This document shows, one piece after another, positions 1,195 through 56,808 of a stretch of 64,000 nucleotides of DNA (positions are counted from its first letter, which is position 1; every line of letters begins with the position of its first letter). Made by a program: the position numbers and the translations under genes. Below the pieces are notes generated by a model, which was not told the origin of the DNA, made no database searches, and worked only from the letters and a program-made list of their open reading frames with translations. Source of the DNA: Elusimicrobiota bacterium (GTDB lineage Bacteria > Elusimicrobiota > Elusimicrobia > JACQJP01); the NCBI GenBank assembly GCA_016204975.1, contig JACQJP010000055.1:2098-66097 (forward strand), written 5' to 3'.

Positions 1195-3159
1195 TCATCG
1201 AACCCGCATGGACCGGGCCTGCGGGAGAAATCTTCCGGCTCCCTCGTGGCTTGGGTCCAGAGCCAAGACTTTTTCAAAAGCCTTCACTACCTCCTCCCAC
1301 CTGCCCTGCCTCCAGTAAAGCACGCCCAGATTGTAGTGGGCGTCAATCGAGCGGGGCTCTCGCCGCAGGGCCTGGAGGTAGGCCCGCTCCGCCTCCGGGA
1401 AAAACCCCCGCTCAAAAAACTGGGCCCCGACCCAGGGCCACCAGGCATAGGAAGGCGCCTCCAGCGCCAACCAAGAAAAATGCCGATAGGCCGCCCCCCT
1501 CCTTCCCTGCTCCAAAAGGGCGCTCCCCAGGAGGCTGTCGGCGTTGGCCCTCAAAGACATCTCCCGGCGGCCTCCCGAGGCGGGGCCTCTCGAGGCGGGG
1601 CCTCTCGAGGCGGGGCCTCCCGAGGCAGTCCGCCGAAAGATGTAGAGTTGGGACCAATCCGTTTGGATCGCCTTGCCCCGCAGAGGCAGGCACTCCCAGA
1701 GGATCCCCTGGCGCCGCCTCGGGACCGCCACCATCTGAGGATCCACCGTGGCGTAATAGACGGGCCTGGGAAAACGGCGGGCCCACAGCCCTTCCAGCCT
1801 CTCCCGAATTCGCAATCGAGGAGGCCCCCAAATCCGGTAATACTCCTTTCCGTAAAGGCTGCGGGTGACGCCGGCGTTGCAATCCACAAAGACCACATCC
1901 AGCCTCCTGGCCTCCGCCTTCTGCAGATAGGCCAGGACGAACTCCGTCTCGTCGGCGCGGTCCGCAAACAGGGTGCTGCCCGCAGGCAAAGTCCGCAGGA
2001 CGTTTCGGCCGTAATCCCAAAGCCAGAAGCTTTGCCGTCCGGAATGCTCCCGGGCGGCCCCAATCGCGGAGCCTCCCAGAAACAAAACCAGCCCAACCCC
2101 GGCCAGGCGCCGCGCTGTGCGGGGCAGGGACCTGCCCGGAAAATCCCAGGAGAGGTTTCCGATCCCCACTGCGGAGAGCCAGAGGGGAGCCAGCAAGAAA
2201 CGCTCCATCATCTCATGGGTGGAGAGCCCGGAGCGCACCTTGGCCAGCACGAAAAAGAGAGGGCCGGCGCAGAGAAAGGCCGCAAGCCAGAGCCAGAAAT
2301 TAGAGGGGTTCCTTCTCCACATCTGAAAGGCTCCCAAAACGGCCAACCCGGCCCCAACGATCCCCAACTGGGACGCCCATAAAGTAAAAAAAGCCAGGAC
2401 CGATTCCCAGGCCCGAGCCAGCGTCCAGGGAGTCTCTGCGCCTCCCTGGGCCAGGGCCAGCGTGCCGTATCGCGAGCGGCTCACCACCCCCCAAAAGCGC
2501 TCCCAGGACTCCGGGTCCTCCCAATCCAGGAGGGGAGCCTGAAGGGAACGCAGGGGCAGATAGACATAGAGGGAAAGTCCCAGGGCGAGAAAAAACAGGG
2601 ACTCCAACGCTCGCCTCTTGGAATCCGCCCGGAAGATCCCCGCGCCAAAAAAAATCGCCGGCGCCAGCAGCAAAAGGGTGTGCTGGTTGCCCAGCCCCAA
2701 GCCCCAAAGAAGAAAACAAAGCCTAAACCGTCCGCCACAGAGGCTCCACCACACGCCCCCCAGGCAAGCCAGGTTTAGGGCGAATACCTCGGAGGATAGG
2801 GAGGACTTCAAAAAAGCGGGGGCTTGGAGCAAGACCAGCGAGGCCAACAAAAAAGGACCCGCACTGGATGAAGAAGCGCGACCGGCGCCGGAGCGCGCCA
2901 ACAAAAGCAGGGAAAAGGCCGCTGCCATAGCAGAGAAAAGATTCATCCGGTAGGCGGGGTTTCCCAGGGGGAGAAGCGAGGAAAAAAGCCTGCCCCCCAA
3001 GACATAGAGAGGATATCCCGGAGGATGGGCGATCCCCAAGGTGCCGGCAGCCGCCGCCAGCTCCGCCGAATCCCCGAAGGAAACGCTGGGAGGCAGATGG
3101 ATGAGCAACCAGAGGAGGCTGACGATAAAGAGAATCGTCCCCATTCGGGCAGTGGTCAT
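1195..3159 (-). CDS. DUF2723-family membrane protein with C-terminal TPR repeats
   Basis: 654-aa ORF. N-terminal GDSAELAAAAGTLGIAHPPGYPLYVL motif and multiple TM helices. C-terminal TPR (AHYNLGVLYWRQGRWEEVVKAFEKVLALDPSH). Contains a PASRG x3 tandem repeat. Confidence 0.75.
   Translation of the reverse strand: MTTARMGTILFIVSLLWLLIHLPPSVSFGDSAELAAAAGTLGIAHPPGYPLYVLGGRLFSSLLPLGNPAYRMNLFSAMAAAFSLLLLARSGAGRASSSSAGPFLLASLVLLQAPAFLKSSLSSEVFALNLACLGGVWWSLCGGRFRLCFLLWGLGLGNQHTLLLLAPAIFFGAGIFRADSKRRALESLFFLALGLSLYVYLPLRSLQAPLLDWEDPESWERFWGVVSRSRYGTLALAQGGAETPWTLARAWESVLAFFTLWASQLGIVGAGLAVLGAFQMWRRNPSNFWLWLAAFLCAGPLFFVLAKVRSGLSTHEMMERFLLAPLWLSAVGIGNLSWDFPGRSLPRTARRLAGVGLVLFLGGSAIGAAREHSGRQSFWLWDYGRNVLRTLPAGSTLFADRADETEFVLAYLQKAEARRLDVVFVDCNAGVTRSLYGKEYYRIWGPPRLRIRERLEGLWARRFPRPVYYATVDPQMVAVPRRRQGILWECLPLRGKAIQTDWSQLYIFRRTASGGPASRGPASRGPASGGRREMSLRANADSLLGSALLEQGRRGAAYRHFSWLALEAPSYAWWPWVGAQFFERGFFPEAERAYLQALRREPRSIDAHYNLGVLYWRQGRWEEVVKAFEKVLALDPSHEGAGRFLPQARSMRVR
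1571..1626. repeat. 15-bp tandem repeat (cgaggcggggcctct), about 3.7 copies, inside the DUF2723 paralog; encodes a (PASRG)n tract
   Basis: Direct reading: cgaggcggggcctct cgaggcggggcctct cgaggcggggcctcc cgaggcag. Confidence 0.5.
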
Positions 3160-5192
3160 CGGTTCTTTCGACCTTCCAGCTCCCGCGCCCTAGCCAAATA
3201 TCCGGCGGCCTGGCCATGGGAAGGATCCAGACGCAGAACCTCTTCGAAGGCCTGGACCACCCCGTCCCATCTTTTTTGACGCCAATACAGGACCCCCAGG
3301 TTATAGTGGGCCTGGACGGAGCGGGGGTCCAGCTCCAAGGCCCTGCGATATGCCTTCTCGGCCTCTGGAAATTTCTCCCGCTTCTCGAGGCTAACCCCTA
3401 AATTGAGAGGAAACTCCGGGTCCTCCGGAAATTCCCACATCCCTTCCCGGTAGAAAGCCTCCGCCCGGAGCCATTGGCGGCTCTCGGCGAAACGGTATCC
3501 CTGCCGGATCCACTCCCACCTCAGGTTGGGCTCCAACCATTCCACATCCCCGCCCGCTCGATGGGCCCACCGTCCCCACAACAGGGCCGGCTGCAAATTG
3601 TTCCGACCGATCTCCCACTGCGCCCGGGCATAAGGAAAGAAGGCCGCCAGGGCCCTCTCCCGATAACGCGGGAAACGGAGGCTCTCCCTATTTCTCAAGA
3701 CGGACAGGGGCCAGAGATTCTCCGCTTCCTTTTCCGAGAGGACCTTTTGAACCAAGCCTATCCATCCCAGCCTCAGCCCGGGCACCAGATCGGAACGCAT
3801 GGTGGAGTAATAAACCGGGCGGAACCCCACCAAGGACCTTTCCACGCGGACCCGCCGCCTTTCCTTTTCCTCGCGGCTCAACTGTCGAAAATCCGGACCG
3901 TAAAGGCCGGGAAACACCAGGCCTCCCCGGTCCGCCAGGGTCACCTCCGGAAGCTCCCCGCGGACGTAGCGGAGGTATGCGGAGGTGTAAAAGGTATCAT
4001 CCCCTCCCTCCATGAGAAAAAGAGCCCGCTGCGGCAAACTGCGCAGGAGATTGCGTCCGTAATCCAGGGCCAGCCACTGAGACCTCAGGCTTCTTGAGGG
4101 AAGCCGCCAAAAAGCGAAAAGTAGGGGGAACGCAGCCGCCAAAACCTTCCAGCCCCTGCTCAGGCGCGGCGAGGCATCGGCGATAAATTCAAAAAAGGCC
4201 ATCCAGGCAAAACCCATGGCCACCGCCGGCAGGGCATAAAACCGCCCCAGGGCTCCTTCCACTTGGGCCGAGGCGGGAGGGTTGCCCAACCATAAGAAAA
4301 AAGGTCCGGAAAAAAATAACCAAAGGAGCGCGACCCCCAGCCCCTCCCGCTCTCTTCTGCGATAAAACCACAGAAGAAAACCGATGCCCCCAAAAAAAAG
4401 GCCCCAGGGGGAGCTGCTCTTCCGGAAAGCCTCCAGAAATCTTTTGGACTGGACGGCCCAGGAGCTCCAACCTCGGGCCTGAGTTTCTTCCACCGTCAGG
4501 GAAAAGGTTCCATAGTCCTTGCGACTGAGCACCCGCCAGAAGCGTTCTGTGCTGGTGGGGTTTCCCCAATTGAGCGGCGGCTGCTGGGCGGCCCGGAAGG
4601 GCAGGATCGCATAGATGGAAAAACCCAGCAGGAAAAAAAATACGGCCACGCCCCATCGGCGAAGCGCCCCCCATCCCGCGCCTTCCCGCAGAACCGCCCA
4701 CAGAAGCGCCGGCCCGATCAAAACCAGGGTGTGGTGATTTCCCAAGCCGAGTCCAAAAAGAAGGCCGATCCAGGAAAGGCTGCGCCGGCGCCGCCAGCCC
4801 CACCCGATACCTATGGCACACAAAAGATTCAAGGAAAAAACCTCCGTCTGAAGCGCGGTATCCAGAAAGTCCAGATTGCAGGCCAATAGGGCCGTCCCCC
4901 AAAGGGAGGCCCCCGGGGAAAACCCCAAGAGCCGGCCCCACCGGTAGAACAAGGAGAGCCCCAGGGAGGCGCAGAATCCGGAAAAGAGGTTCATCCTGTA
5001 TCCCCAGTCTCCCAGCCTCAGAAGCTCGCCGAAGGCTCGGGCCAAAAGAACGTACAGAGGATAGCCGGGGGCATGGGGGAGACTCCAGGTGGCCGCGGCG
5101 GTCATAAACTCCCCGGAGTCGCCGACCGTCACCCCGGGCGCCGACAGGGAGAGATAAGCCCCAAAAGAGGCTAGAAAAACAAAAAAGCCCAT
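3156..5192 (-). CDS. DUF2723-family membrane protein with C-terminal TPR repeats (paralog)
   Basis: ORF track gives 3156..5261. The likely start is the ATG at 5192-5190 (MGFFVFLASFGAYLSL...), which overlaps the upstream TGA as TGATG. Carries the GDSGEFMTAAATWSLPHAPGYPLYVL motif and a C-terminal TPR (AHYNLGVLYWRQKRWDGVVQAFEEVLRLDPSH). Confidence 0.7.
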   Translation of the reverse strand: MGFFVFLASFGAYLSLSAPGVTVGDSGEFMTAAATWSLPHAPGYPLYVLLARAFGELLRLGDWGYRMNLFSGFCASLGLSLFYRWGRLLGFSPGASLWGTALLACNLDFLDTALQTEVFSLNLLCAIGIGWGWRRRRSLSWIGLLFGLGLGNHHTLVLIGPALLWAVLREGAGWGALRRWGVAVFFFLLGFSIYAILPFRAAQQPPLNWGNPTSTERFWRVLSRKDYGTFSLTVEETQARGWSSWAVQSKRFLEAFRKSSSPWGLFFGGIGFLLWFYRRREREGLGVALLWLFFSGPFFLWLGNPPASAQVEGALGRFYALPAVAMGFAWMAFFEFIADASPRLSRGWKVLAAAFPLLFAFWRLPSRSLRSQWLALDYGRNLLRSLPQRALFLMEGGDDTFYTSAYLRYVRGELPEVTLADRGGLVFPGLYGPDFRQLSREEKERRRVRVERSLVGFRPVYYSTMRSDLVPGLRLGWIGLVQKVLSEKEAENLWPLSVLRNRESLRFPRYRERALAAFFPYARAQWEIGRNNLQPALLWGRWAHRAGGDVEWLEPNLRWEWIRQGYRFAESRQWLRAEAFYREGMWEFPEDPEFPLNLGVSLEKREKFPEAEKAYRRALELDPRSVQAHYNLGVLYWRQKRWDGVVQAFEEVLRLDPSHGQAAGYLARARELEGRKNR

Positions 5193-7282
5193 CAGGGCTG
5201 TCCCCGCCTCCTTCTTAAAAACCACTCCGTCCCTAAAATCCCCATCAGCCCCAGCACCCAAGCCGGAAAGGAGGCCGGCTCCACCTTGCGCCGAACTTCC
5301 TCACGCAGGGCCGTGGGGGGAAGGCCCTCCAACCAACTTCCCAGATCCAGCTCCTCCAAACGAGCGAACCCCCCTCCGGATAGAGAGGCCCACTCCTCCA
5401 GCCTCTCCCGCAGCATCGGCCCCGCCTCCTCCCCGGAAGGAGAGGTCTCCAGCTCCAGATGGTCCTCCCCCCATAAAACTCCCGCACGCCGCGCCACGGC
5501 CCGGATTCGATAGGTCCCTCCCCGCCCGATCCACTCCGTTGCGGCGTAGATTCCCTCGCCCACCTTTTCGACGGGAAGAGACTGGGTTTCTCCCCGAGGG
5601 TCCCGCAAGCCCATCTCCACCGCCAGGGAGGCATCCTCCAAGGGCCGGAGGGCTTCATCCCGTACCTGCACCCGGAAGGTAACCTTCTGGGAGGGGCTCT
5701 CCGGCGAAAAAGGCTCCTGCAAATCCAGGACCACCCGCGGCTCGCCCTCCGCACCGGTGACCCAGCGGATCCCCTGATTCCAAAAACGGTTGTAGGCCCA
5801 ATAAAACTCTCCCTGATCCACGGCGCCGGCCTTCCATAACCAGGTGGAGTGGGTCCCGATGGCCAGCACCCGCCCCTTCCCTTTTTTCCAAGCCGCCAGG
5901 ATGGGGCTGCCCTGGGCGCTCGCCAAAACGAGGGCCCCTGGCTTGGGCCCACCCCAGCGGTTTCTCCCTTCCGTGGGCGGCAAAAGCCCCCAGTGGGAAA
6001 ACGGAGTCCCTCCCTCCCCGATCCGCAGCACCGGGTGATTCGGCTCCTGAACCTGCCATTGGAAGCTCCCCGGTTCGTAATCCCCGGAGTTCAGCTCAAC
6101 AGGCAAAACGGCCTCCAAGGGAGTGCCCTGATAGCCGCCGGCTCCGAAGGAGTGAGGACCTCCCAAGACGATCCAGCCGCCCCCCTCCAAAACGAACCGA
6201 ACCACCTGAGCGAGATACGCATCCGGGAGCTGAAACCGCACATGGGAAAAATTCTCCAGGATAAACAGATCAAATTGGAATAAATCCTGGTGAAAGATCT
6301 GATGAGCGGGAAAGGGAATGAGGGAGAGATCTCTTTCCGGAACGGGCGGGATATCCTGGGGATCCCTCAAGATCACAAAAGAAACCAGCTCCACCTTGGG
6401 ATCGGATTTCAAAAGCCGCCTCAAGGAAGCATACTCCGGGCTGGGGCTGCCGCAAAGGTAGAGGACCCGCAGGGTTTGGCGCGCCACCTCCACGGAGATC
6501 TCCCGACGATTGTTGTGCGGATTCGTTTCCCCGGCCAGCGGGGGGACCTCCACCCCGTAACGCAGGGTTCCCAACTGCTGAGGAACTTCCTCAAAGACGA
6601 GCTCCATGCTTTCTGAGCGCCCTGTCCAGCGGACCTGCTGGGTTTGCAAGAGCCGCCCTTTTTCCCCATACAGCTTGAGAGGGAACGATTGAGGCGAGAG
6701 GCCAAAAACCTCCAGGCGAACCCGGAGCCGGAAGGGCTGTCTCAGATAGGCGAAGCGGGGAGCCCAGATCTGGGAGACCCTCAAGTCCCTGGGCACCTTT
6801 TCCCAAGAGATACCGACGGAGGAGAGGGGAACCCCCCAAGAACCGAGGAGCTTGCGGGGATCCTCCGGACCATTGTCCCTGCCGTCCGAAAAGAGCCAGA
6901 CCGCAGACCGTGAAAGATCCTGGGTGGAAAGCTCACTCAGCGCCTCTCCCAGGTGGGTCGCACCTCCCTCCGGAAAAGAGGAGGAGGAACCCAGGTCCTC
7001 CCACCGGATCTTGCGCAGGCGGTCTGAAAAAACATAGAGGCTGACCTCGGCCCGGCGCGCAAGCTCCCTTTCGTGCCGCCGCAGCCAATCCAGGCTTCGG
7101 CGCAGGGCGGACCCCGAATCCTGCCGGGACCCCATGCTGCCCGAGACGTCCAACAAGAGCTTCAGGCGAGGCAGAGCATGCACCTTCTCCTCAAGGACCC
7201 AAACCGGGTTCCAAAGCAAAACCAGAAAAAATACCCACCCCAAGGCCCGCAGCCAGATTCGGACGGAGATCTTGCGCCTCAC
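5192..7282 (-). CDS. membrane-anchored vWA-domain protein (BatB-like) with a C-terminal class-I glutamine amidotransferase-like / DUF1355-like region
   Basis: 696 aa. N-terminal TM helix, vWA MIDAS-like LLLDVSGSMGS, and a C-terminal GGWIVLGGPHSFGAGGY segment. It sits in an operon with MoxR and DUF58. Confidence 0.6.
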   Translation of the reverse strand: MRRKISVRIWLRALGWVFFLVLLWNPVWVLEEKVHALPRLKLLLDVSGSMGSRQDSGSALRRSLDWLRRHERELARRAEVSLYVFSDRLRKIRWEDLGSSSSFPEGGATHLGEALSELSTQDLSRSAVWLFSDGRDNGPEDPRKLLGSWGVPLSSVGISWEKVPRDLRVSQIWAPRFAYLRQPFRLRVRLEVFGLSPQSFPLKLYGEKGRLLQTQQVRWTGRSESMELVFEEVPQQLGTLRYGVEVPPLAGETNPHNNRREISVEVARQTLRVLYLCGSPSPEYASLRRLLKSDPKVELVSFVILRDPQDIPPVPERDLSLIPFPAHQIFHQDLFQFDLFILENFSHVRFQLPDAYLAQVVRFVLEGGGWIVLGGPHSFGAGGYQGTPLEAVLPVELNSGDYEPGSFQWQVQEPNHPVLRIGEGGTPFSHWGLLPPTEGRNRWGGPKPGALVLASAQGSPILAAWKKGKGRVLAIGTHSTWLWKAGAVDQGEFYWAYNRFWNQGIRWVTGAEGEPRVVLDLQEPFSPESPSQKVTFRVQVRDEALRPLEDASLAVEMGLRDPRGETQSLPVEKVGEGIYAATEWIGRGGTYRIRAVARRAGVLWGEDHLELETSPSGEEAGPMLRERLEEWASLSGGGFARLEELDLGSWLEGLPPTALREEVRRKVEPASFPAWVLGLMGILGTEWFLRRRRGQP

Positions 7283-10941: not shown

Positions 10942-11075
10942 GGAAGAAGACGAAACAGCAATAACCGGACTCTTGCAAAGATATTGAGAAGGGGACTGGG
11001 CGGGGATTGCCTGGAGAAAACCCTGTGCAGCTTGGCCCTGGGCTACGAGCGAAGCGAGAGCCAAGCTGCACTCGG

Positions 11076-11154
11076 GAGCGAGCCTCGCAAATGGCAAGCG
11101 TTTTCCGGAAGGCAACCCCGGACAGGCCCCTAAAGTACCTCTTTGCAAAAGTCC
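11076..11154. mobile_element. partial MITE-like element (right half with terminal TTTGCAAAAGTCC) in the moxR-DUF58 intergenic region
   Basis: The sequence gagcctcgcaaatggcaagcgttttccggaaggcaacc...ctctttgcaaaagtcc aligns with the right halves of the full copies at 55106-55335 and 60176-60350. Confidence 0.5.
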
Positions 11155-12284: not shown

Positions 12285-13634
12285 GTGAAGATTCAGTCCA
12301 AGAAAATCGTCCTCTGCGCCGGGGTCCGCACCCCCTTCGGCCACATCGCCCGCTCCCTGGCCCAAGTCTATCCGGAGGAGCTTTTCCGGCAGACCTTGGA
12401 AGCTCTCCTGCGGAAGGCCTCCCTCTCCAAAGAAGCGGTAGATGGGGTGATCTGCGGCTGGGTGGGGCAAGGCTTCCATGCCCCCAATATCGCCCGCGTC
12501 ACCGCCCTAAAGGCGGGCCTCCCGGAGCGCGTCCAGGCCTTCACCGTCCAGAACAACTGCATCTCCTCGATTGAATCCGTAGCCGCCGCCGCCCGTTGCA
12601 TCCTCAGCGGCGAGGGGGAAGTTTATCTGGCCGGTGGCACCGAGTCCATGTCGCTATTGCCCTTCACCCTGCAGGGCTCCCGCGCCTCCAAAGAGCTGAG
12701 GAGCCTGGAGGCCTTGAAAAACCGCTGGGGGGAAATCCCCAAGAGCCAGGAGGTTGCTGTGGTGGACTCTCTGGAACAGGGCCTGACCGATCCCGTCCAA
12801 ACGATCAACATGGCGGCCACGGCCGAGGTATGCGCCCAGATATACGAAATCTCCCGGGAAAAACAGGACGTCTACGCTTTGGAGAGCTTCTCCCGGTGCC
12901 TGGCGGCCTGGAAAGAAGGCTTCTACCGTAGCCATGTCTTCCCGGTCACCCGCAACGGGGCGACACTTTTAGAAAAAGACGAATATCCCTTCCTGCGGGA
13001 GGAGCTCGTCTCCAAGCCGGAAAAATTCGCCAAAGCTCCCCTTTCCTTCGACACCTCCAGCTATCCCATCCAGAATTTCTACCACGATTTCGAGCGCCAC
13101 ATGCCGGGCAAAAACTACCAGGCGGGAAAAACAAAGGGGACGGTGACCCTGTTCAATTCCTGCGCCAGATCGGACGGCGCCTCCGCGGTGCTTCTCGCGA
13201 CCGAAGAGAAAGCCCGGAAGCTGAAACTACCCGTTCTGGCGGAAATCGCGGCCTGGGGATTTTACGGAAATAACCCCGCCCACATGGGGATCTCACCCGC
13301 CCTGGCCGCCCCCGTCGCCTTAGAGCGCGCGGGCATCTCTTTCGAGGAACTGGACTCCATCGAGCTCCACGAGCCCTTCGCCGCCACCGTCTTGTCCATC
13401 TTTAAGGTGGGAGAAGAGCGCTTCGGGAACCGATGGGAAGAAAAATGGAAACAGGGCCGCTTGAACCCCCATGGCGGCTCCATCGCCATGGGCCATCCCT
13501 TGGGGGCCACCGGCACGCGCCTGGTCTTAAACCTCCTCTACGCGCTCCAAAAAAAACCCTCCGCCCAATGGGGCCTGCTGGCGGCCTGTGCCGGCGGCGG
13601 CATGGGCGGGGCCATGGTGCTGAAAAAAGTTTAA
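12285..13634 (+). CDS. thiolase-family acetyl-CoA C-acyltransferase
   Basis: GTG start after GGAGG. Thiolase N- and C-terminal signatures: CAGVRTPFG, NNCISS, GGTESMS, C-terminal GGMGGAMVL. Confidence 0.8.
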   Translation: MKIQSKKIVLCAGVRTPFGHIARSLAQVYPEELFRQTLEALLRKASLSKEAVDGVICGWVGQGFHAPNIARVTALKAGLPERVQAFTVQNNCISSIESVAAAARCILSGEGEVYLAGGTESMSLLPFTLQGSRASKELRSLEALKNRWGEIPKSQEVAVVDSLEQGLTDPVQTINMAATAEVCAQIYEISREKQDVYALESFSRCLAAWKEGFYRSHVFPVTRNGATLLEKDEYPFLREELVSKPEKFAKAPLSFDTSSYPIQNFYHDFERHMPGKNYQAGKTKGTVTLFNSCARSDGASAVLLATEEKARKLKLPVLAEIAAWGFYGNNPAHMGISPALAAPVALERAGISFEELDSIELHEPFAATVLSIFKVGEERFGNRWEEKWKQGRLNPHGGSIAMGHPLGATGTRLVLNLLYALQKKPSAQWGLLAACAGGGMGGAMVLKKV

Positions 13635-14524
13635 CCCCGGGGATGGTATCTTTGGTGGTGGGACTTCAGGTGCCTGCGATCGAGGTGGGTATAGATTTGG
13701 GTGGAGGAGAGACTGGCATGTCCCAGCATCTCCTGGACGGAGCGCAGGTCCGCCCCGCCCCGAAGCAGATGGGTGGCAAAGGAATGCCGGAAGGTATGGG
13801 GGGAAATCTGTTTGGAGATTCCGGCGCGCCTGGCTGCATCCTTTAAATCCCGCCAAAACTGCACCCGGCTCAGTCTCTTGCCGCCCCGCCCCAAAAAAAC
13901 CTCCGGAGCCGTCTTGCGCTGCGCAAATCTCCTCTGCCGGAAATCCAGGTAGCGCCCCAAAGCCTCCACAGCGCGCGCATGAATGGGAATCAAGCGCTCC
14001 CGATTGCCCTTGCCGACGACCCGAACCCAACGCTCTTCCAATTGCAGCTGCTCGCGTTTGAGGCCGACCAGCTCCGAAACCCGCATGCCGGTGGCATAGA
14101 TCACCTCCAGCATGGCATGCATGCGGATCGCCTGCTCCTTTTTGGAGCCGGCACACTGCCACAACAACCTCTGGACCTCCTCAGGCTCCAAGACCACGGG
14201 GAGCCTCGCGGTCCGGCGGGGCAACCCCAGTCTGGCCACGGGATTTTTGGAGAGCTCTCCCTCGAAGATCAAGTAACGATAGAAGCTGCGCAGGGCCTGC
14301 ATCTTTCTGGATAGACTGGCCGGCTTCAGGGACAGCTTGGAATGCAAAAACCACAGGTAGTCCGAGATCTGCGAAGGCGTAATCCGCAGGAAGGGAATCC
14401 CTTTTTTCTGCAAAAACTGTAAGTAGTGTTCTAAATCCCTGCGGTAGGCCTGACAAGTATGGACCGAAAGACCGCGTTCCAGCGCCAGCTGCTTAATAAA
14501 CTCCGAGAGGTGATCGGTGATTTC
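13631..14524 (-). CDS. XerC/XerD-family tyrosine recombinase; N-terminus has no canonical start codon
   Basis: C-terminal catalytic region HTFRHSFATHLL...LGHASLSSTQIYTHL. The frame stays open upstream of the track's TTG start (14413) and encodes the expected core-binding N-terminus EITDHLSEFIKQLALERGLSVHTCQAYRRDLEHYLQFL. This frame runs directly into the recA stop codon (14525-14527) in the same frame, with no ATG, GTG or TTG in between. Confidence 0.75.
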   Translation of the reverse strand, partial: EITDHLSEFIKQLALERGLSVHTCQAYRRDLEHYLQFLQKKGIPFLRITPSQISDYLWFLHSKLSLKPASLSRKMQALRSFYRYLIFEGELSKNPVARLGLPRRTARLPVVLEPEEVQRLLWQCAGSKKEQAIRMHAMLEVIYATGMRVSELVGLKREQLQLEERWVRVVGKGNRERLIPIHARAVEALGRYLDFRQRRFAQRKTAPEVFLGRGGKRLSRVQFWRDLKDAARRAGISKQISPHTFRHSFATHLLRGGADLRSVQEMLGHASLSSTQIYTHLDRRHLKSHHQRYHPRG

Positions 14525-24800: not shown

Positions 24801-25142
24801 CTGGGTCGCTCCTCTCAGGCCCTAAGCCAGGCACACTCCCAAGGGGGGCTGGAAAGCGCCCAGAAGGCCCTGGAGCTTCTTGAGGAGGGAAGCTCCCAAC
24901 TTCAGTCGGCGGCCTCCAGAAGAAAATCCCTGGAAAGCCTGGCGGGACAAAGCGTCTCCACCTTCTTGCCCACCCAGGGACTCACCCCCGCAGGAGGCAT
25001 GGAGACGGGCTGGGTAAAAATCCCGGAGCCCAAACCGCTCCCCAGCTCGCTGCGGGAGGAAATCCTCAAGGCGCTTCAAGAAAAACTTCCCCAGGCCTAT
25101 GAATCGGCGGTGGAAAAATACTTCAAAAAAATTGTTGAGTAA
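21870..25142 (+). CDS. large (1090 aa) N-terminally membrane-anchored coiled-coil, Gln/Leu-rich protein of unknown function
   Basis: Two N-terminal TM helices. It is followed by a mixed beta-rich region and a long Q/L/E-rich coiled coil. Its start overlaps the GT39 gene. Confidence 0.5.
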   Translation: MAARKEIKEIEARITFLLWRARFQNLLFWTASALSLLSLTLLLLLLLDRRFSLPHGLRLLSGGALWAAAALSAAAVGWHLFGRIRPIWIIQKIQSRFPQMRDHLLHAWLLGREIQEGRLRHVSEELAQKHILETLRRLSELPLQKCLRLPGDWRIFSGWTLALCLPLWLAGRPDSGPRALQRLLAPWRDPTLEELLEISPKDAAVAWGNSVSVSAAWKTPQKTPPELWVRGASGQAPYQKGWETSQETSYAFTFPELTQSLEYWIQWQDLRTRRYQLHPIPAPQFSSLEITLEFPAYTQKEKWKTSAGDLEAPAGTRIEWRGFSEELLRSAFLQVLGGPKKILRHIPSKKGPHLYAASHKLQESAEYSFLLENAWGVSNPHPIRYRMAVLPDQAPQVDLLSPTFEVQIGPRGILPLTVQASDDYGLTEISLVYQRRHPNAHPTSTVLKSLRPSAPRHLLTHLWPLAPLAPSLGEKIDFWIEAKDDRPPAPQTGRSRKNTLLLVDFEETHRQSEATLEKFREKLLETLAEQIAAHDLLAQTLPQLQRLQIPPETLQALQAKQNRATQSLEASRRHLEEGLQALLRDPYLNPAALSEYQAMQQNLQALAQGPLQDLQEALAQRRWPQAQNLQNSLISELEKMALLAEEVLKFQRMRDVLTASHSAELSTQRLSGLLKELAEQSSALSAAQAQELAGLLGHIQKDLQDISRLLQELPQDLPEEFVNRAAADSLELPEMHSLTAGLSAALRAGDFQKAAELARELSRKLQTLKQKLGEAVSQTGLSQTRSVAGSLDSEAQTLRQLIQEQAKTVEAIRAQEEKRLRRLMAAQQDLLEKLEKRQRAVLEKAGGLAPHLIPQNTLDTMRAVEKEFADRQVLHAQLYLDKILQELENQKRTHPKQTPNLDPIQQEEGDILKELQKKLPSPPWRGGEAKEFTQLSQKEQGIEERVRNLHRELQEMTRKTALIPRAFFEKSLQAQEELGRSSQALSQAHSQGGLESAQKALELLEEGSSQLQSAASRRKSLESLAGQSVSTFLPTQGLTPAGGMETGWVKIPEPKPLPSSLREEILKALQEKLPQAYESAVEKYFKKIVE

Positions 25143-25146
25143 CGTT

Positions 25147-26466
25147 TTGAAAAGTCTAGTTCTGATCCTGCTGCTTTTCTGGAGCCCGGCACAGCTTCGG
25201 CCGTCCTGGGCCGCCGTTCAGCCGGACTGGGAGCATCGCCAAAGCGCCCACTTTCTGCTGTACTACCAAAAACGGGACGGAATTCTCGTGGAAGGCTCCC
25301 TGGAGGCCTTAGAGAGCGCCTACCGGGAAATCGGAAACGATCTCCGCTATCATCCTCCGGATAAAATCCGGGTGGAGATCTACCGCACCAAAAAAGAATT
25401 CGCCCTCGCCTCCACCCTGGGAGAAAAAATTTTGGAGCATGCCGGGGTCATCGGCATCTACAAGTTCAACCGCCTCATGATCCTGACCCCCGAGGCCCTG
25501 GCCTTCGGGTACCGTTGGCAAGATGCCCTGGCGCACGAATACACCCACCTTCTGATCGACCGAATCTCTGCGGGACCCGACTACGGTCGGGGAGTGCCGG
25601 CTCAACACGCCTTTGGGGCCCGGCCTGCGGCCGCTGTCCCCCTGTGGCTCCATGAAGGAATCAGCAAGTACGAAGAAACCCGTTGGCGTCTGGCGACACC
25701 GCAGCCCCTAAGCCCGGGAGACTCCGATGAACTGGCCCAGGGCCTAGAGGCTTCCCGTCTCATCCCCTTCTCCGCCATGGAGCCCTCCCTGGTCTACCTG
25801 GACAGCCAGGAGGCGGTCTCCCTGGCCTTCGCCCAGGTGGCCCATGCCGTGGGGACCCTGGTTCAAACGCGTGGACCGGCGTCTCTGTCGGAGCTTTTGC
25901 GAAACCCCTCCCAACGGCCGGCCTTTACACAAGACTTCTACTTGGAATGGAAAGAGGCTCTGAAGGAAAATCCTCCGCCCCGCCTTCCGGGAGCCGCCAA
26001 AGGCCGCACCCACTTCAAAGGGGAAACGGAGGAGGTCTTCCTGGGAGCGGACCTGCGTGGGCTCATCCGCCTGGGGGACCGCTTCCGGCAAAGAAAGCTC
26101 CCGGAGATCGCCCTCCGAGAATACCGAAAGGCGCTGGAGCGGGAACCCTATAACCCCATCGCCCTCTACAAAACGGCCATGACCCTGCTGGAGACCCGCC
26201 GGAAGGATATCGCCCTGGAACACCTGGAAACCTCCACCCGCTACAATCCCCATCACGCCGCCGGCTGGATTCTTTTGGCGGATCAATATGTTACACTGAA
26301 GAACTGGGAGAAGGCGATCGCCGCATATACCGAGGCCCTCCGCATCAATCCCTTTAACCCCCATCCCTATCGGCAACTCCAGGTGATCCATACCCGGCTC
26401 GGAAACAAAGCGGAAGCGGAAAAACAGAATCAAAACCTGCAGCGGTTACAAACCGAGGGGCCATGA
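25147..26466 (+). CDS. secreted HExxH-motif (zincin-like) protein with C-terminal TPR repeats; carries an in-frame 55-bp repeat-element insertion
   Basis: Signal peptide, AHEYTHLL ... LHEGISKYEE, and C-terminal TPR repeats. The start lies somewhere among TTG codons at 25126-25147. Confidence 0.55.
   Translation: MKSLVLILLLFWSPAQLRPSWAAVQPDWEHRQSAHFLLYYQKRDGILVEGSLEALESAYREIGNDLRYHPPDKIRVEIYRTKKEFALASTLGEKILEHAGVIGIYKFNRLMILTPEALAFGYRWQDALAHEYTHLLIDRISAGPDYGRGVPAQHAFGARPAAAVPLWLHEGISKYEETRWRLATPQPLSPGDSDELAQGLEASRLIPFSAMEPSLVYLDSQEAVSLAFAQVAHAVGTLVQTRGPASLSELLRNPSQRPAFTQDFYLEWKEALKENPPPRLPGAAKGRTHFKGETEEVFLGADLRGLIRLGDRFRQRKLPEIALREYRKALEREPYNPIALYKTAMTLLETRRKDIALEHLETSTRYNPHHAAGWILLADQYVTLKNWEKAIAAYTEALRINPFNPHPYRQLQVIHTRLGNKAEAEKQNQNLQRLQTEGP
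25571..25625. repeat. 55-bp palindromic repeat element, copy A (in frame inside the HExxH-TPR gene)
   Basis: cgggacccgactacggtcggggagtgccggctcaacacgcctttggggcccggcc is near-identical to the copies at 37610-37663 and at 55204-55258 (reverse complement). It is translated as AGPDYGRGVPAQHAFGARPA. Confidence 0.7.
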
Positions 26467-31973: not shown

Positions 31974-32000
31974 CCCCAATTCCATTTTGCCAAAGCCCGC
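31974..32000. repeat. degenerate MITE-terminus remnant upstream of glgA
   Basis: ccccaattccattttgccaaagcccgc versus the consensus cccccaattccattttgcaaaagtcc. Confidence 0.25.
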
Positions 32001-32024
32001 AATAAATATACAATTCCAAAAACA

Positions 32025-33488
32025 ATGAAAATCGCCCTGGCGGCCAGCGAGGCGGTGCCCTACGCCAAAACAGGGGGGCTGGCGGATGTGGTGGGCGCCC
32101 TGGCCAAGCTCCTGCCCCAAAACAACTGCCAAACCCTCCTCTTTCTACCCAAGTACAAATCCATCGAGGAGCAGCGATGGAAGCTCCGGCGCCTACCGGG
32201 GAGCCTCGCCGTTCCCGTCGGCTCCCGGCAGGAACCGGCCACCCTGTTTCGGAAAGATCAGGGAAGGCTGAAGGTCTATTTCATCGCCCACCCCCGCTAC
32301 TTCGAGCGCGAGGGACTCTATACTGCGCCCCAAGGAGATTATCCGGACAACGACGAGCGCTTTCTCTTCTTCAGCCGGGCCGTGCTGGAGAGTCTGAAAA
32401 AATTGGGATGGCAGCCGGACATCCTGCACTGCCACGACTGGCAGACCGCCCTGATCTGCGCTTATCTTGAGACCCTTTACCGCGAGGATCCCTTCTTCCG
32501 CCGGACCGGCACCCTGCTCAGCCTTCACAACCTCGCCTACCAAGGTCTTTTTCCCAAAGAGTCTTTGCTGAAGGCGGGATTTGGATGGGGGGAATTCACC
32601 CCGGAGAAATTTGAATTCTACGGGTGCATGAGCTTCTTAAAAGCGGGGATCGTCTCGGCGGACCTGTTGACCACCGTCAGCCCCACCTACGCCCGGGAGA
32701 TCCAATCGGACCCCGAAAAGGGCAAGGGGTTGGAAGGGGTGCTCCAAAAAAGATCGCAAGACCTGACCGGCATACTCAACGGTTTGGACATCCAGCTTTG
32801 GACCCCCTCCAAAGACCCCCACCTGAGCTGCCGCTACTCCGCTTCCACAGTCCTCAAGAAAAAGCCCCTCTGCAAGGAGTTTCTACAGAAAAGATGCGGC
32901 TGGACCCCGTCCCCCACAACCCCTCTTCTGGGAATCGTCTCCCGATTGGACCCCCAAAAAGGAATTGACCTGGCCTGCGAGGTGCTCCTGCCTTACCTCA
33001 AAGAAAAGAGTCTTCGGACCGTCCTGCTGGGCTGTGGGGATTGCGCCCTCCAGGAAACCCTTCGGGAGCTGGCCCGGCGGCATCCGGAGCAGATATTCGT
33101 CTCCAATGACTTCGACGAACCCCTGGCCCACCAGATCTACGCCGGATGCGACTTCTTCCTGATGCCCTCGCGCTTTGAGCCCTGCGGCCTGGGACAGATG
33201 ATCGCCATGCGCTATGGAACCCCGCCCATCGTGGTCCGGACGGGGGGCCTGGCGGACACCCTCCGGGATCCAAAATCCCACCCGGAACAGGCCACGGGCT
33301 TTCTGGCGGAAGCTCCCACCTCAAGCGCCGTCCAAGAGGCTTTGGAACGAGCGCTCCAAACCTGGCGCCAACCCGAACAATACCGCCGGATGGTCCACAA
33401 CGCCATCCGGCAGGACTTCTCCTGGAAAAAGTCCATCCCCCTCTATCTGGAAACTTACCAAAGAGCTCTTTTCAAGAAGTCGAAGTGA
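32025..33488 (+). CDS. glgA: glycogen synthase (ADP-glucose type)
   Basis: MKIALAASEAVPYAKTGGLADVVGALAKLLP N-terminal signature and a GT1/GT5 C-terminal domain. Confidence 0.85.
   Translation: MKIALAASEAVPYAKTGGLADVVGALAKLLPQNNCQTLLFLPKYKSIEEQRWKLRRLPGSLAVPVGSRQEPATLFRKDQGRLKVYFIAHPRYFEREGLYTAPQGDYPDNDERFLFFSRAVLESLKKLGWQPDILHCHDWQTALICAYLETLYREDPFFRRTGTLLSLHNLAYQGLFPKESLLKAGFGWGEFTPEKFEFYGCMSFLKAGIVSADLLTTVSPTYAREIQSDPEKGKGLEGVLQKRSQDLTGILNGLDIQLWTPSKDPHLSCRYSASTVLKKKPLCKEFLQKRCGWTPSPTTPLLGIVSRLDPQKGIDLACEVLLPYLKEKSLRTVLLGCGDCALQETLRELARRHPEQIFVSNDFDEPLAHQIYAGCDFFLMPSRFEPCGLGQMIAMRYGTPPIVVRTGGLADTLRDPKSHPEQATGFLAEAPTSSAVQEALERALQTWRQPEQYRRMVHNAIRQDFSWKKSIPLYLETYQRALFKKSK
33423..33482. repeat. 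left direct repeat (glgA 3' end) of the island
   Basis: tggaaaaagtccatccccctctatctggaaacttaccaaagagctcttttcaagaagtc is repeated at 35530-35588 with 2 mismatches. Confidence 0.7.
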
Positions 33489-35489: not shown

Positions 35490-35529
35490 GTGGCGCGGGC
35501 TTTGGGTAGGCACCTGTTCGTTGATTTCC

Positions 35530-35588
35530 TGGAAAAAGTCCATCCCCCTCTATCTGGAAACTTACCAAAAAGCTCTTTCCAAGAAGTC
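35530..35588. repeat. right direct repeat of the island (copy of the glgA 3' end)
   Basis: See 33423-33482. Confidence 0.7.
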
Positions 35589-37589: not shown

Positions 37590-38960
37590 ATGAAAAAAAT
37601 CCATCCTGTGGGACCCGACTACGGTCGGGGAGTGCCGGCTCAACACGCCGTTGGGGCCCGGCCTCTCAAAACCGTTTTAGGAGCCCTGCTGATCCTTCCG
37701 GCGCTCTATTTCCTTCCCAAGGCCTACTCGGCGGTGGATCGAACCTATGAGCAGATCAAAATTCTGGTGGACATCTTGGACTATATCCGTGACAACTACG
37801 TGGAGGAGACCGAGACCCAGGAACTGATCTACGGCGCCGCCCAGGGCATGGTCCGCAGCCTAGACGACTTCTCCCAGTTTATGGAACCCCGTGAGCACAA
37901 GGAGATGAAAACAGAGACGGAAGGACAGTTCGGAGGCTTGGGGATCCGCATCGGCATCCGGGACGGATACTTGACCGTCATTACCCCGCTGCCTGGAACC
38001 CCCGCCTACAAGGCAGGGGTCATGCCGGGCGACCGCATCGTGAAGATCCAAAACGAAGGGGAGAAAGAACCGATCCTGGTGGACATGCAGAAGTGGACCC
38101 TCTTCGATGCGGTGGATGTGCTCCGTGGAAAGCCGGGCTCCAAGGTGGTCATCAGCGTCTCCCACCGGCAGATGGTCGAAGAGAAAGAAACCTGGAGCGA
38201 ACTGCAGGAGATCACCGTCGCCCGGGAATGGATCAAGATCCAAACCACCTACTCCAAATTCCTGGATCCGGACATCGCCTACCTGAGGCTCGTGGAGTTC
38301 ACCCAAAAGACGGTGCCGGATGCGGTTAAAGAGCTGAGGGCAAACCGCCAGAAAGGCATGCGCTCGGCGATTCTGGATCTGCGCAACAACCCAGGGGGAC
38401 TCTTGAGCTCGGCGGTAGAGTTCTCCCAGCAATTCCTAGGGCAGAACAAGCTGATCGTCTATACCCAGGGCAAAAATCCCGAAAACCGCCAGGAGTTCCG
38501 GGCCAAGACCAAGGGAGAATTCGAGGACATTCCTCTGGTGGTTTTAGTCAATGGGGGCTCCGCCTCCGGCAGCGAAATCGTAGCCGGAGCTCTCCAAGAC
38601 CACAAACGCGCCATCGTGATCGGTTCCAATACTTTCGGCAAGGCCAGCGTACAATCCGTCATTCCGCTCGCAGACGGTTCCGGGCTGCGGCTGACTGTGG
38701 CCAAATACTATACCCCCCTGGGACGCTCCATCCAAAGGGATAAAAAAACCAAGGAAGGGGGAATCCAGCCCGACATTCGAATTGAGGTCCCGAGGGAACA
38801 AGAGGCCAAGCTGCAGGCCCAGTGGCAGGAGATATACACCCCCGGGGAAGAATCCCAATCCGCCATCAAAAAAGAGGAGCAGGTCAAAGACATGCTCCTG
38901 GAGCGGGGGATAGAACTCCTCAAAGCCCGGCACGTCCTCTCCAGGCTGCAGGAAGGATAG
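37590..38960 (+). CDS. ctpA: carboxyl-terminal processing peptidase (S41, PDZ); 55-bp repeat element inserted in frame just after the start codon
   Basis: PDZ region IRDGYLTVITPLPGTPAYKAGVMPGDRIVKI. S41 catalytic region LVVLVNGGSASGSEIVAGALQDHKRAIVIGSNTFGKASVQ. N-terminus reads MKKIHPV[GPDYGRGVPAQHAVGARP]LKTVLGALLILPALYF. Confidence 0.8.
   Translation: MKKIHPVGPDYGRGVPAQHAVGARPLKTVLGALLILPALYFLPKAYSAVDRTYEQIKILVDILDYIRDNYVEETETQELIYGAAQGMVRSLDDFSQFMEPREHKEMKTETEGQFGGLGIRIGIRDGYLTVITPLPGTPAYKAGVMPGDRIVKIQNEGEKEPILVDMQKWTLFDAVDVLRGKPGSKVVISVSHRQMVEEKETWSELQEITVAREWIKIQTTYSKFLDPDIAYLRLVEFTQKTVPDAVKELRANRQKGMRSAILDLRNNPGGLLSSAVEFSQQFLGQNKLIVYTQGKNPENRQEFRAKTKGEFEDIPLVVLVNGGSASGSEIVAGALQDHKRAIVIGSNTFGKASVQSVIPLADGSGLRLTVAKYYTPLGRSIQRDKKTKEGGIQPDIRIEVPREQEAKLQAQWQEIYTPGEESQSAIKKEEQVKDMLLERGIELLKARHVLSRLQEG
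37610..37663. repeat. 55-bp palindromic repeat element, copy B (in frame inside ctpA)
   Basis: gggacccgactacggtcggggagtgccggctcaacacgccgttggggcccggcc. Confidence 0.7.
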
Positions 38961-46065: not shown

Positions 46066-46080
46066 TTTTTGCAAAAGTCC
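46066..46080. repeat. solo MITE terminal repeat (TTTTTGCAAAAGTCC) immediately after the gene stop
   Basis: Exact match to the right terminal inverted repeat of the MITE family. No partner terminus nearby. Confidence 0.35.
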
Positions 46081-46148
46081 AGAATTAACATTTCTTTAAC
46101 AATTTTTTAATACGTTGGTAACACCCTTCCTTTAAAATTCCCTTCACC

Positions 46149-49292: not shown

Positions 49293-49306
49293 ACCATGAA
49301 ATCCCG

Positions 49307-49506
49307 GGACTTTTGCAAATTTACAGAGAAGGGGGTGGCCGTGGGGATTGCAACCCCCGGACAGACCCCCAATTCCACTGGGGAAAACCTCAGGGACTTT
49401 TCCAATAAGAGATGGCAAAGTCTTACCGCAGGCGGGTGGCCAGGGATTGCAACCCCTGGACAGGACCCGCCTGCAAAAAAACAGAAATTCCATTTTGCAA
49501 AAGTCC
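49307..49506. mobile_element. MITE-like element (200 bp) with 13-bp terminal inverted repeats GGACTTTTGCAAA / TTTGCAAAAGTCC; internally rearranged copy
   Basis: Both termini read directly. The interior shares gggattgcaaccc..ggacag(a)cccccaattcca blocks with the copies at 55106 and 60176. Confidence 0.6.
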
Positions 49507-49526
49507 TGTTCCTATTTGGATTATTC

Positions 49527-50459
49527 TTGCTTTGCCTATGGTCCCCCGCACGGGCCATTGACTCCGACGCGGGCACCGGGGGAGCGCAGTTTCTAAAGAT
49601 CGGCGCCGGAAACCCCCGAGCCATGGCCCTGGGCCGCGCCTACGTCGCGCAGGCCGAGGGCGCCGACGCCCTCACCTGGAACCCCGCGGGGCTGGGACGC
49701 ACCCAAAGAAAAGAGGCCGTCTTCGGCTACACCAACTGGCTGCAGGGTTTTAACGGCCAGTATCTCGCCTACGCCCATCCCTTGGGCCGCACCGTCTGGG
49801 GAGCTAATCTCGCCTACTTCACCCTGGACGACTTCGATGTTCGCAACGAACAGGGCATCCCCCAGGTGGGAACCACGGTCTTAGTCCGGGATTTCTTCTC
49901 CACCTTCGCGGTCGCCCGCTCTCTCTTGACCGAAAGGCTCTTTCTGGGGGGGGGCCTGAAGTGGGTGCATGAAGACAACTCCGGCCCCATCCAGGACAGC
50001 TTCGTGGCGGACCTGGGAGCCCTGGTGCGCATTCGGGAAAACCTCCATGCAGGATTTGCCCTGCAAAACTTCGGCGCCCCTAAAGCGGATGTGGCCAGCA
50101 CCTTAAGGTTCGGAGGAGTCCTCAACATCCGCAAGACCTTCAACCTCTCCCTGGAGATCTCCCAAGCCAACGACAATGAGACCCGGGTGGGAATCGGAGG
50201 AGAGTTTATCGTCCCGGAATATCTCCTGCAACTGGGCCAGATCGCCTTCCGGGCGGGATTTTTCTCCACCGACAACCTGGGCCAGAACCTGAGCTCCTTT
50301 TTAAAAACGATTCAGATGGACCGCACCTCCGGCCTGAGCCTCGGAATCGGTCTGTTTTCCAACCGCGCCTTTGGATACGGGATGGGATTGGACTACGCCT
50401 TCGCTCCCATGGGGGCTTTGGGCTTGACGCACCACCTGACAGTAAAGATGAAATTCTGA
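49527..50459 (+). CDS. outer-membrane beta-barrel-like protein (NPAGLG family, C-terminal Phe)
   Basis: FLKIGAGNPRAMALGRAYVAQAEGADALTWNPAGLG and a terminal ...TVKMKF. The ORF track start (49296) reads through the MITE. The first post-MITE start is the TTG at 49527. Confidence 0.5.
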   Translation: MLCLWSPARAIDSDAGTGGAQFLKIGAGNPRAMALGRAYVAQAEGADALTWNPAGLGRTQRKEAVFGYTNWLQGFNGQYLAYAHPLGRTVWGANLAYFTLDDFDVRNEQGIPQVGTTVLVRDFFSTFAVARSLLTERLFLGGGLKWVHEDNSGPIQDSFVADLGALVRIRENLHAGFALQNFGAPKADVASTLRFGGVLNIRKTFNLSLEISQANDNETRVGIGGEFIVPEYLLQLGQIAFRAGFFSTDNLGQNLSSFLKTIQMDRTSGLSLGIGLFSNRAFGYGMGLDYAFAPMGALGLTHHLTVKMKF

Positions 50460-50479
50460 TGAAGGCAAAATGACATTCC

Positions 50480-50508
50480 TTGACAATTTTTCAAGCCCCT
50501 GTTACACT
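50480..50508 (+). promoter_or_regulatory. candidate sigma-70-type promoter (TTGACA-N17-TACACT) upstream of the first Flp pilin gene
   Basis: TTGACA at 50480-50485 and TACACT at 50503-50508, with a 17-nt spacer. The GTG pilin start lies 8 nt downstream, suggesting a possible leaderless transcript. Confidence 0.35.
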
Positions 50509-50515
50509 CAGACAG

Positions 50516-50674
50516 GTGAAAAGGCTTGGGGGAAAAGGACAAGCCACCACGGAGTACCTGCTGGCCACCGTGGCCTTCCTGGTGCTCTTTGCGGCGCTCC
50601 ATGCCGTGATGCATACCAGCTTGACCGAGATATTCAAAAAGGCGGCCTTGGCAATCCTGTTGCCGCATTATTAG
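50516..50674 (+). CDS. Flp/Fap-family pilin 1
   Basis: MKRLGGKGQATTEYLLATVAFLVLFAAL has the G/XXXXEY prepilin cleavage motif followed by a hydrophobic helix. The ORF track start at 50480 is the TTG of the -35 box. Confidence 0.6.
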   Translation: MKRLGGKGQATTEYLLATVAFLVLFAALHAVMHTSLTEIFKKAALAILLPHY

Positions 50675-50689
50675 GGAAAGGAGGAAAAA

Positions 50690-50878: not shown

Positions 50879-50880
50879 TT

Positions 50881-51354: not shown

Positions 51355-51367
51355 GGGAGAACAAACC

Positions 51368-52123: not shown

Positions 52124-52127
52124 TACC

Positions 52128-52868: not shown

Positions 52869-52889
52869 GAGGCTCAGGCGTAGACGAAA

Positions 52890-56806: not shown

Positions 56807-56808
56807 AA

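Follow-up and report, generated by a model that had tools for sequence, protein, structure and literature searches.

A 64-kb stretch of DNA from a metagenome-assembled genome (MAG) of an Elusimicrobiota bacterium (GCA_016204975.1, contig JACQJP010000055.1; the 64,000 nucleotides analyzed here are referred to as the window) contains three near-identical copies of a short G+C-rich repeat. Two of these copies lie in frame inside protein-coding genes, one for a secreted peptidase with an HExxH motif and tetratricopeptide repeats (TPR) and the other for a CtpA-like processing peptidase, and the third is nested in a larger repeat that resembles a MITE (miniature inverted-repeat transposable element). 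The repeat is probably a non-autonomous, MITE-like mobile DNA of 55 bp, which duplicates a CT dinucleotide at its target and is mobilized in trans. The presence of a filled site together with its matching empty site, and of insertions between the zinc ligands of a peptidase and in a signal peptide, all within one 64-kb stretch, makes this an unusually clean case of protein remodelling. It also makes Elusimicrobia, a phylum represented here solely by MAGs, a further case of in-frame gene colonization by repeats. The window is part of a 72.5-kb contig of a MAG with locus tags HY402_, and the database protein P0001, which corresponds to MBI4055878.1, has 100% identity to the window protein.

Copies of the element in the window and their boundaries

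A preliminary description of this DNA had placed a repeat of 54-55 nt at three locations, two of them in genes and the third in reverse orientation inside a MITE. All three copies were found at those locations, and the element itself is best read as one of 55 nt, but the net insert is 57 nt, and the 18 codons that had been attributed to it are corrected to 19. Copy 1 spans 25568-25626 on the forward strand (CT at 25568-25569, the 55-nt element at 25570-25624, and CT at 25625-25626), copy 2 spans 37606-37664 on the same strand, with the element at 37608-37662 between two CT dinucleotides, and copy 3, nested in the larger MITE, spans 55203-55261 on the reverse strand. The 59-nt block common to the three loci reads CTG[C/T]GGGACCCGACTACGGTCGGGGAGTGCCGGCTCAACACGCC[T/G]TTGGGGCCCGGCCT, with GGCCCGGCCT as its right end. 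Pairwise identity among the three 59-nt copies is 57-59 of 59 positions, copy 3 being the same as copy 1 throughout (59/59) and copy 2 differing from it by 2 substitutions. When the three loci are aligned with their flanks, the similarity begins and ends abruptly. The 40-nt core, GGGACCCGACTACGGTCGGGGAGTGCCGGCTCAACACGCC, has exactly three matches in the window, at 25572-25611 (+), 37610-37649 (+), and 55218-55257 (-), and no match was obtained in any of 100 dinucleotide-preserving shuffles. A search of the window with each half of the element, in which six mismatches were allowed, revealed no further partial copies, and no inverted partner of the element was found within the window.

The net size of the insert was obtained from three independent comparisons, which all agree on 57 nt (19 codons): the larger MITE, the homologues of the secreted peptidase, and the period of the tandem copies found elsewhere in the genome, which is of 19 residues (P0121). 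The filled MITE (55106-55335, forward strand; 173 nt plus the 57-nt insert, with termini GGACTTTTGCAAA...TTTGCAAAAGTCC) is located in the intergenic region between a cpaF-like and a tadB-like gene, and it is collinear with the MITE in reverse orientation at 60176-60350 save for one gap of exactly 57 columns. The empty site of the latter reads, on the forward strand, GCTCG-CT-CCGGCAAT, with the single target CT at 60251-60252, and the filled site reads GCTCG-CT-[55 nt]-CT-CCGGCAAT. This clean gap upholds the earlier use of the empty site as evidence of mobility.

CT is found at either side of each of the four complete copies, including the one from the second genome described below, and once at the empty site. 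At the protein level, every copy read in frame a comes directly after an S or a P, as NCT codons would allow. Past the CT, the right flanks differ (GCGG, CTCA, CCGG, and CCGG), and only [G/C]CGG is common to three of the four. The best reading of these junctions is an element of 55 bp that would generate a 2-bp CT duplication. A 6-bp target duplication, CTSCGG, was also considered, and was rejected given that the hexamer at the left reads CTG[C/T]GG in all cases, independently of the right flank, and that the empty site has CTCCGG.

The CT on both sides of the insert and the single CT of the empty site also reproduce the CT-core geometry of IS621 (PMC11208160), and the tandem arrays share a CT as well. 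For this reason, the repeat might be a minimal donor for a CT-core IS110/IS1111 (bridge-RNA) recombinase acting in trans, or mainly a target of such an insertion sequence (IS). Insertion by these recombinases needs a guide-RNA match of 11-14 nt, whereas the four targets of the repeat are alike only in CT, without a conserved sequence of about 11-14 nt (PMC11208160), and this argues against RNA-guided insertion. Furthermore, a double-stranded circle of 57 bp is sterically implausible, the element has no recombinase of its own and is far too small, being incapable of encoding a bridge RNA, and no DEDD recombinase was found in the window. An origin of this kind is considered very improbable.

Insertion into two peptidase genes

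Copy 1 is located in the gene at 25099-26466 (+), the open reading frame (ORF) of which is intact and encodes a secreted Peptidase_MA-like (HExxH...E) and TPR protein of 455 aa. The copy is translated as A158-P176 and lies between the HEYTH motif (H146-H150) and the HEGISKYEE segment. In each of the 27 homologues that were aligned (27/27, 35-50% identity), there is a gap of exactly 19 residues that falls after S157 and before the PLWLHEG motif, both of them conserved. The comparison with orthologues that had been proposed for this gene therefore confirms the indel, and given that none of the 27 homologues carries the insert, the possibility that it is an ancient conserved segment fails.

The location of the insert in the protein was explored with an AlphaFold2 model built on an alignment of 28 sequences. 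The model has a mean predicted local distance difference test score (pLDDT) of 90 and a predicted template-modelling score (pTM) of 0.87, and the pLDDT is 57-61 over residues 161-180, a stretch that lies between the helix 140-157, which contains HEYTH, and the helix 182-192 (LHEG...). In the model, the insert is thus a loop of low confidence that protrudes between two helices of high confidence, on which the zinc ligands are located; whether it lies in a surface loop was the question that had been put to the modelling. A fold search of the PDB with this model was dominated by TPR matches and left the peptidase domain uninformed. Most of the homologues that lack the insert are annotated with the Pfam domain Peptidase_MA_2, and the score of this domain in the host peptidase is 26.3 bits, which is below the gathering cut-off of 32.4; the 19-residue insert probably splits the domain match. 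Elements of this kind thus depress domain scores, and they also seed spurious small ORFs.

Copy 2 is located at the 5' end of the gene at 37590-38960 (+), which encodes an S41 C-terminal processing peptidase (CtpA-like) of 456 aa and has an AGGAG sequence 6 nt 5' of its ATG. The copy is translated as V7-P25, shares its orientation and frame with copy 1, and follows codon 6 (CCT) of the gene and not codon 7, as had been stated. It lies ahead of the hydrophobic core of the signal peptide and lengthens its n-region. Removal of the 57 nt leaves MKKIHPLKTVLGALLILPALYFLPKAYSA, a canonical signal peptide. The comparison with other CtpA proteins points in the same direction: the N-termini of the relatives are much shorter, with 31 residues ahead of the conserved AVD motif in the best relative (P0126, 60% identity) versus 47 in the protein of the window, the N-terminus of which is approximately 16 residues longer. 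Both host proteins may have remained functional, with inserts that would be neutral.

Structure and coding capacity of the element

The 57-nt unit has a G+C content of 74%. Folding as DNA and as RNA predicts two local hairpins, CCCGAC-TACG-GTCGGG near the left end, with a subterminal stem of 6 bp, and GCCGG...CCGGC, with a stem of 5 bp, which closes the right half. In copy 1, hairpin 1 is formed by 25576-25581 with 25586-25591, and hairpin 2 by 25596-25600 with 25620-25624. The designation of the repeat as palindromic is therefore too strong: it is made of these two short hairpins (CCCGAC/GTCGGG and GCCGG/CCGGC) and not of one long palindrome, which the folding energies, discussed below, do not favor either. 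The left end reads G[C/T]GGGACCCG and the reverse complement of the right end reads GCCGGGCCCC, with a match at 7 of 10 positions. A search of Rfam with the whole window gave no match at the gathering thresholds, and a search with the element gave none that was meaningful at E<=10, and so the element is not a known RNA family.

It had been observed that the element is read in the same frame and without stops in both genes. The copies are indeed in frame and both ORFs are intact, but the frame shared by the two genes has no statistical weight, with n=2 and a one-in-six chance of matching. Five of the six frames of the block are free of stops. Since 47% of the composition-matched shuffles of the block have at least five open frames, the absence of stops in the frame that is used is unremarkable, and selection for an open reading frame was rejected as unnecessary. 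The compatibility of the element with coding is a by-product of its G+C content and of a length that is a multiple of three.

Copies in other contigs and in a second genome

Copies beyond the window were sought with a protein search, in which the query was made of the five open-frame translations of the element concatenated as one artificial sequence. Five further proteins were obtained, all of them with HY402_ locus tags (MBI4054xxx-MBI4055xxx) and encoded on four other contigs of the MAG. Protein P0121 has two tandem copies at its C-terminus, P0122 has two copies in a reverse frame, one of which has diverged, P0123 has one copy after a transmembrane anchor, P0124 has one copy near its N-terminus, and P0125 has two tandem copies in a reverse frame with a period of 19 residues. 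There are thus at least eight copies on the four other contigs and at least 11 in total, a count that comprises only copies overlapping annotated ORFs, several of which are perhaps spurious. In three of the five protein loci, a fragment of the 3' end ('ARP', 'GARP', or 'AG') precedes the full copy or array in the orientation of the element, which suggests insertion beside an end-like sequence or decay of members of the array.

When the core was searched in 185,579 species-representative genomes, the sole other MAG that contained it was the Elusimicrobia MAG JACQJM01, in which two to three copies are found in intergenic regions. The G+C content of this genome is 51%, versus 59% for the MAG of the window. 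Two of its three matches are located at most 50 nt from a contig end, the third runs off the end of the stretch examined, and contigs L001 and L002 overlap by 44 nt within the element; repeats of this kind thus break MAG assemblies. The sequence of L001 is identical to window copy 2 over 42 nt. The copy on contig L003 is a variant with 49-51 of 59 positions identical, in which 36 nt at the start and 8 nt at the end are kept. The sole change within the first 36 nt affects one base of the loop of hairpin 1, and seven interior positions differ. Compensatory changes in the stems are absent and, therefore, the stems themselves are not proven. To judge from these sequences, conserved ends with a free interior form the pattern that would be expected of sites recognized by a protein. 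No genuine match was found in JGI metagenomes, viral contigs, or plasmids; three high-GC contigs (L004-L006) from a scan of metagenomes with a looser core match only a pattern of 22-25 nt and were set aside as chance matches.

If L001 (4190-4295) and L002 (3165-3060, reverse complement) are joined, the element takes the central position in a palindromic repeat of approximately 150 nt with arms TTTAGAACTTCCCCGAA...CCCTC.CCCC. The right flank of this joined copy is CC and not CT, and it would represent a second nesting in another repeat. Of the six copies that could be read as DNA, as many as three are located within or beside other hairpin-rich repeats.

The wider search that had been proposed speaks against a local assembly artefact, given the copies on four other contigs and in a second MAG. 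Since the DNA comes from a MAG, a collapsed or chimeric assembly could in principle create a repeat, just as a segment native to an ancient protein could be taken for an insert. The latter is contradicted by the 27 homologues without it, and both are contradicted by the identical DNA that occurs in a non-coding context and in reverse orientation, by the two intact ORFs, and by the distribution of the copies over five contigs of the MAG and an independently binned one. Both explanations are effectively refuted.

The arrays and the partial units are also products that slippage would give. A perfect repeat of 6 nt (CTGCGG...CTGCGG) is found around copy 1, and one that matches in 5 of 6 positions around copy 3. 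These features would fit an origin by microhomology-mediated template switching or gene conversion, followed by local replication slippage and with no transposition. Such events would yield variable end points, whereas all copies have the same boundaries, even that of ctpA, with a microhomology of only 2-3 nt, and that of the other genome. Moreover, termini that are conserved between the genomes while the interior varies indicate recognition of the ends by a protein. It is thus most unlikely that the copies arose without transposition.

Probable mobilization of the element

The proposal that the two genes and the larger MITE were the targets of a second, smaller mobile repeat is supported, and the three tests that had been put forward for it all turned out in its favor. 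Dispersed near-identical copies that are too small to encode a transposase are characteristic of MITEs, and the CT on both sides of the insert, with a single CT at the empty site, corresponds to the target duplication of such elements. Transposition is, therefore, the process that we infer for the MITE-like element. The target of insertion would be a CT dinucleotide, found afterwards at either side of the element, with 57 bp being added each time. Given that 57 is a multiple of three, the downstream frame would be kept in any insertion into a gene, and because stops are present in only one of the six frames, most insertions would add a 19-residue peptide rich in Gly, Pro, Ala, and Arg. The copies that survive in genes would be those that landed where the added residues are tolerated, namely a surface loop in the secreted peptidase and the n-region in CtpA. 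The copies elsewhere in the MAG are located in small ORFs annotated as hypothetical, some of them at the ends of the ORFs.

The mobilizing enzyme would act in trans and be encoded elsewhere in the genome. By analogy, the preferred reading is that it would belong to the DDE class and follow the logic of IS30- or IS3-like elements. Tandem copies with the same 2-bp spacing recall the abutted-end junctions of IS30-/IS3-type elements, and an attraction of the element to its own right end recalls the end-targeting observed in the IS30 and IS3 families. A preference for insertion beside sequences that resemble the right end would give rise to head-to-tail arrays that share CT and are preceded by a fragment of the 3' end. 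For a search for the mobilizing enzyme, concrete handles are provided by the flanking CT, the arrays of tandem copies, and the fragments of the 3' end.

Several observations weigh against such a MITE-like element. No transposase or REP-associated tyrosine transposase (RAYT, where REP stands for repetitive extragenic palindrome) was found in the 64-kb window, among its 47 larger ORFs, or in 12 kb of the second genome (L001-L003). The terminal inverted repeat, with its 7 matches in 10 positions (GCGGGACCCG vs GCCGGGCCCC), is weak when compared with the yardstick of about 15-30 bp for MITEs, and the folding energies have z-scores of -0.1 to -2.5 relative to shuffles, barely better than shuffled sequence. 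A 2-bp duplication is also not distinguishable from an element of 57 bp that lies beside CT without any duplication, and there are just three comparisons with an empty site, two of which are at the protein level and involve homologues of at most 50% identity. Finally, recent insertion is suggested by the near-identity of the copies, which is the single indication of recent mobility.

The only recombinase encoded in the window is a XerC/D-like tyrosine recombinase of 260 aa at 13631-14413 (-), with Phage_integrase and Phage_int_SAM_1 domains. It is probably of the XerC/D type, and no mobile element is evident around it. This protein was rejected as the mobilizing enzyme given that tyrosine recombinases use overlaps of 6-8 bp and not of 2 bp. 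A reading of the repeat as an integron attC-like site was based on the motifs GCTCAAC and GTTGGGG, and it was also rejected, given that these are only 5 nt apart and that one of them is present in a single copy.

The two subterminal hairpins with almost no terminal inverted repeat, together with the constant dinucleotide at the left flank, lead to the main rival explanation. According to it, the repeat would be REP/REPIN-like or derived from IS200/IS605 (PATE-like), and would move as single-stranded DNA by means of a HUH tyrosine transposase (RAYT or TnpA), the mobile unit being the 57 nt located 3' of ..CT and with no duplication taking place. An intermediate of 55-57 nt is physically easier as single-stranded DNA, and the association of up to three of the six DNA-read copies with hairpin-rich repeats is in line with this explanation. 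Intragenic REPs are documented in Opitutus terrae and in Rickettsia conorii (RPE-4/6), where GC-rich stem-loops add approximately 20-30 residues to known genes and occur in clusters (PMC3733652). The element is similar to them in its GC-rich stem-loops, its intragenic coding position, and its clustering.

Nonetheless, REPs and REPINs are recognized by a GTAG/CGTC tag and by inverted dimers (PMC3733652), and the element differs from them in both. There is no such tag at the foot of either stem, hairpin 1 being flanked by GYGGGA and GAGTGCC and hairpin 2 by GGAGT and CT, and GTAG occurs nowhere but across the hairpin 1 loop, as read on the minus strand. The tandem copies of P0121 and P0125 are arranged head-to-tail, whereas those of REPINs and BIMEs typically form inverted dimers, either head-to-head or tail-to-tail (PMC3733652). 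No RAYT was seen nearby, and no Y1 transposase was found in the window. With respect to PATE elements, only CT is constant at the left flank, and the two hairpins are unrelated in sequence. The ends of IS200/IS605 elements carry similar hairpins, unlike those of the repeat, and their targets have 4-5 nt, compared with the 2 nt conserved at the left flank here. Movement through a HUH transposase is therefore regarded as unlikely, albeit as the alternative that deserves the most attention.

Comparison with known repeats

The preliminary description had compared the repeat with Rickettsia palindromic elements (RPEs) and Correia repeats, a likeness that holds for the behavior of the element and not for membership of either family. 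RPEs are short repeats found in frame in many unrelated and apparently functional genes, with a peptide that is predicted to be tolerated (PMC10969869, PMC3733652). The element resembles them in these two respects, in-frame insertion and a tolerated position of the peptide, and only in behavior. RPEs of the RPE-1 type have approximately 100-150 bp and belong to Rickettsia, whereas the element has 55 + 2 bp, two small hairpins, and CT flanks, and belongs to Elusimicrobia; this separation is based on descriptions of length, host, and structure.

ERIC/YPAL, Correia/NEMIS, the QMITE1 of Coxiella, and the MITEs of Anabaena are non-autonomous repeats with short target duplications that are sometimes found in frame inside genes and that can be nested (PMC10969869). 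Non-autonomy, a short duplication, in-frame fusion, and nesting are shared by the element. These MITEs measure 70-300 bp and have terminal inverted repeats of 15-30 bp, whereas the element has approximately 55 bp and an imperfect repeat of about 10 nt. Correia/NEMIS repeats have 100-155 bp, terminal inverted repeats of 26 bp, and a TA duplication. The 55 bp, the weak inverted repeats, and the duplication of CT place the element outside this family.

In size and flanks, the element is formally closest to the GC42 element of yeast mitochondria, a GC-rich hairpin of about 42 nt with AG direct repeats, which occurs both singly and in tandem and has a free 3' fragment, GC18; its mobilizing enzyme is given as unknown (PMC4478555, which cites Weiller 1989). 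The dinucleotide AG is the reverse complement of CT. The yeast GC clusters (M class) and the double-hairpin elements of fungal mitochondria belong to another compartment and another host, and the analogy is one of form only.

From this analogy, the element could be viewed as a bacterial counterpart of the mitochondrial GC-cluster/double-hairpin class, which is defined by a size of about 40-60 bp, CT/AG duplication, head-to-tail arrays, free 3' fragments, and no cognate IS. The mechanism would then be one that is new among bacterial repeats, such as an insertion that targets the ends of the element itself or copying mediated by RNA or single-stranded DNA, and the element would have been exchanged horizontally between distinct lineages of Elusimicrobia. 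The exchange is proposed because a stretch of 42 nt is the same in L001 and in window copy 2 despite a difference of 8 percentage points in G+C content. This possibility is considered doubtful. With respect to novelty, the sequence family and its phylum are new, and its size is among the smallest in the known range, but the kind of element is already known.

Other repeats and genes in the window

The larger MITE-like family, of about 175 nt, has members at 10966-11140, 49307-49518, 55106-55335, and 60176-60350, all of them intergenic, and fragments at 31974-32010 and 46067-46100. Its core is GGGGATTGCCYGGAGAAAA ... CGCAAATGGCGAG..GGCAACCC.GGACAG, which is also present in L003 at 4200-4330, approximately 60 nt from the small element of that contig. 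No match to this family was found in Rfam. Given its conservation across two genomes that differ in G+C content, the larger repeat could be a structured RNA instead of a plain MITE.

The filled MITE lies within a Tad/Flp pilus cluster (49296-58979), which encodes a TadE-like protein, RcpC/CpaB, a secretin, a CpaF-type ATPase, two TadB/C-type T2SSF proteins, and a TPR protein. The ATPase gene and the first T2SSF gene lie on the two sides of the MITE and of the element nested in it, which are presumably co-transcribed.

Two further repeats were observed in the window. A direct repeat of 62 nt with 97% identity (TCCTGGAAAAAGTCCATCCCCCTCTATCTGGAAACTTACCAAAGAGCTC...) occurs at 33420-33481, at the 3' end of a glycogen-synthase-like ORF, and at 35527-35588, 5' of the FtsX/M23 ORF that starts at 35665. 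A tandem 15-nt repeat at 1569-1626 (GGCCTCYCGAGGCGG, about four copies) is located in the TMEM260-like/TPR ORF at 1195-3159 (-), where it encodes an in-frame repeat of 5 residues. This ORF lies beside a paralogue at 3156-5261, with which it has in common a stretch of 71 nt with 77% identity.

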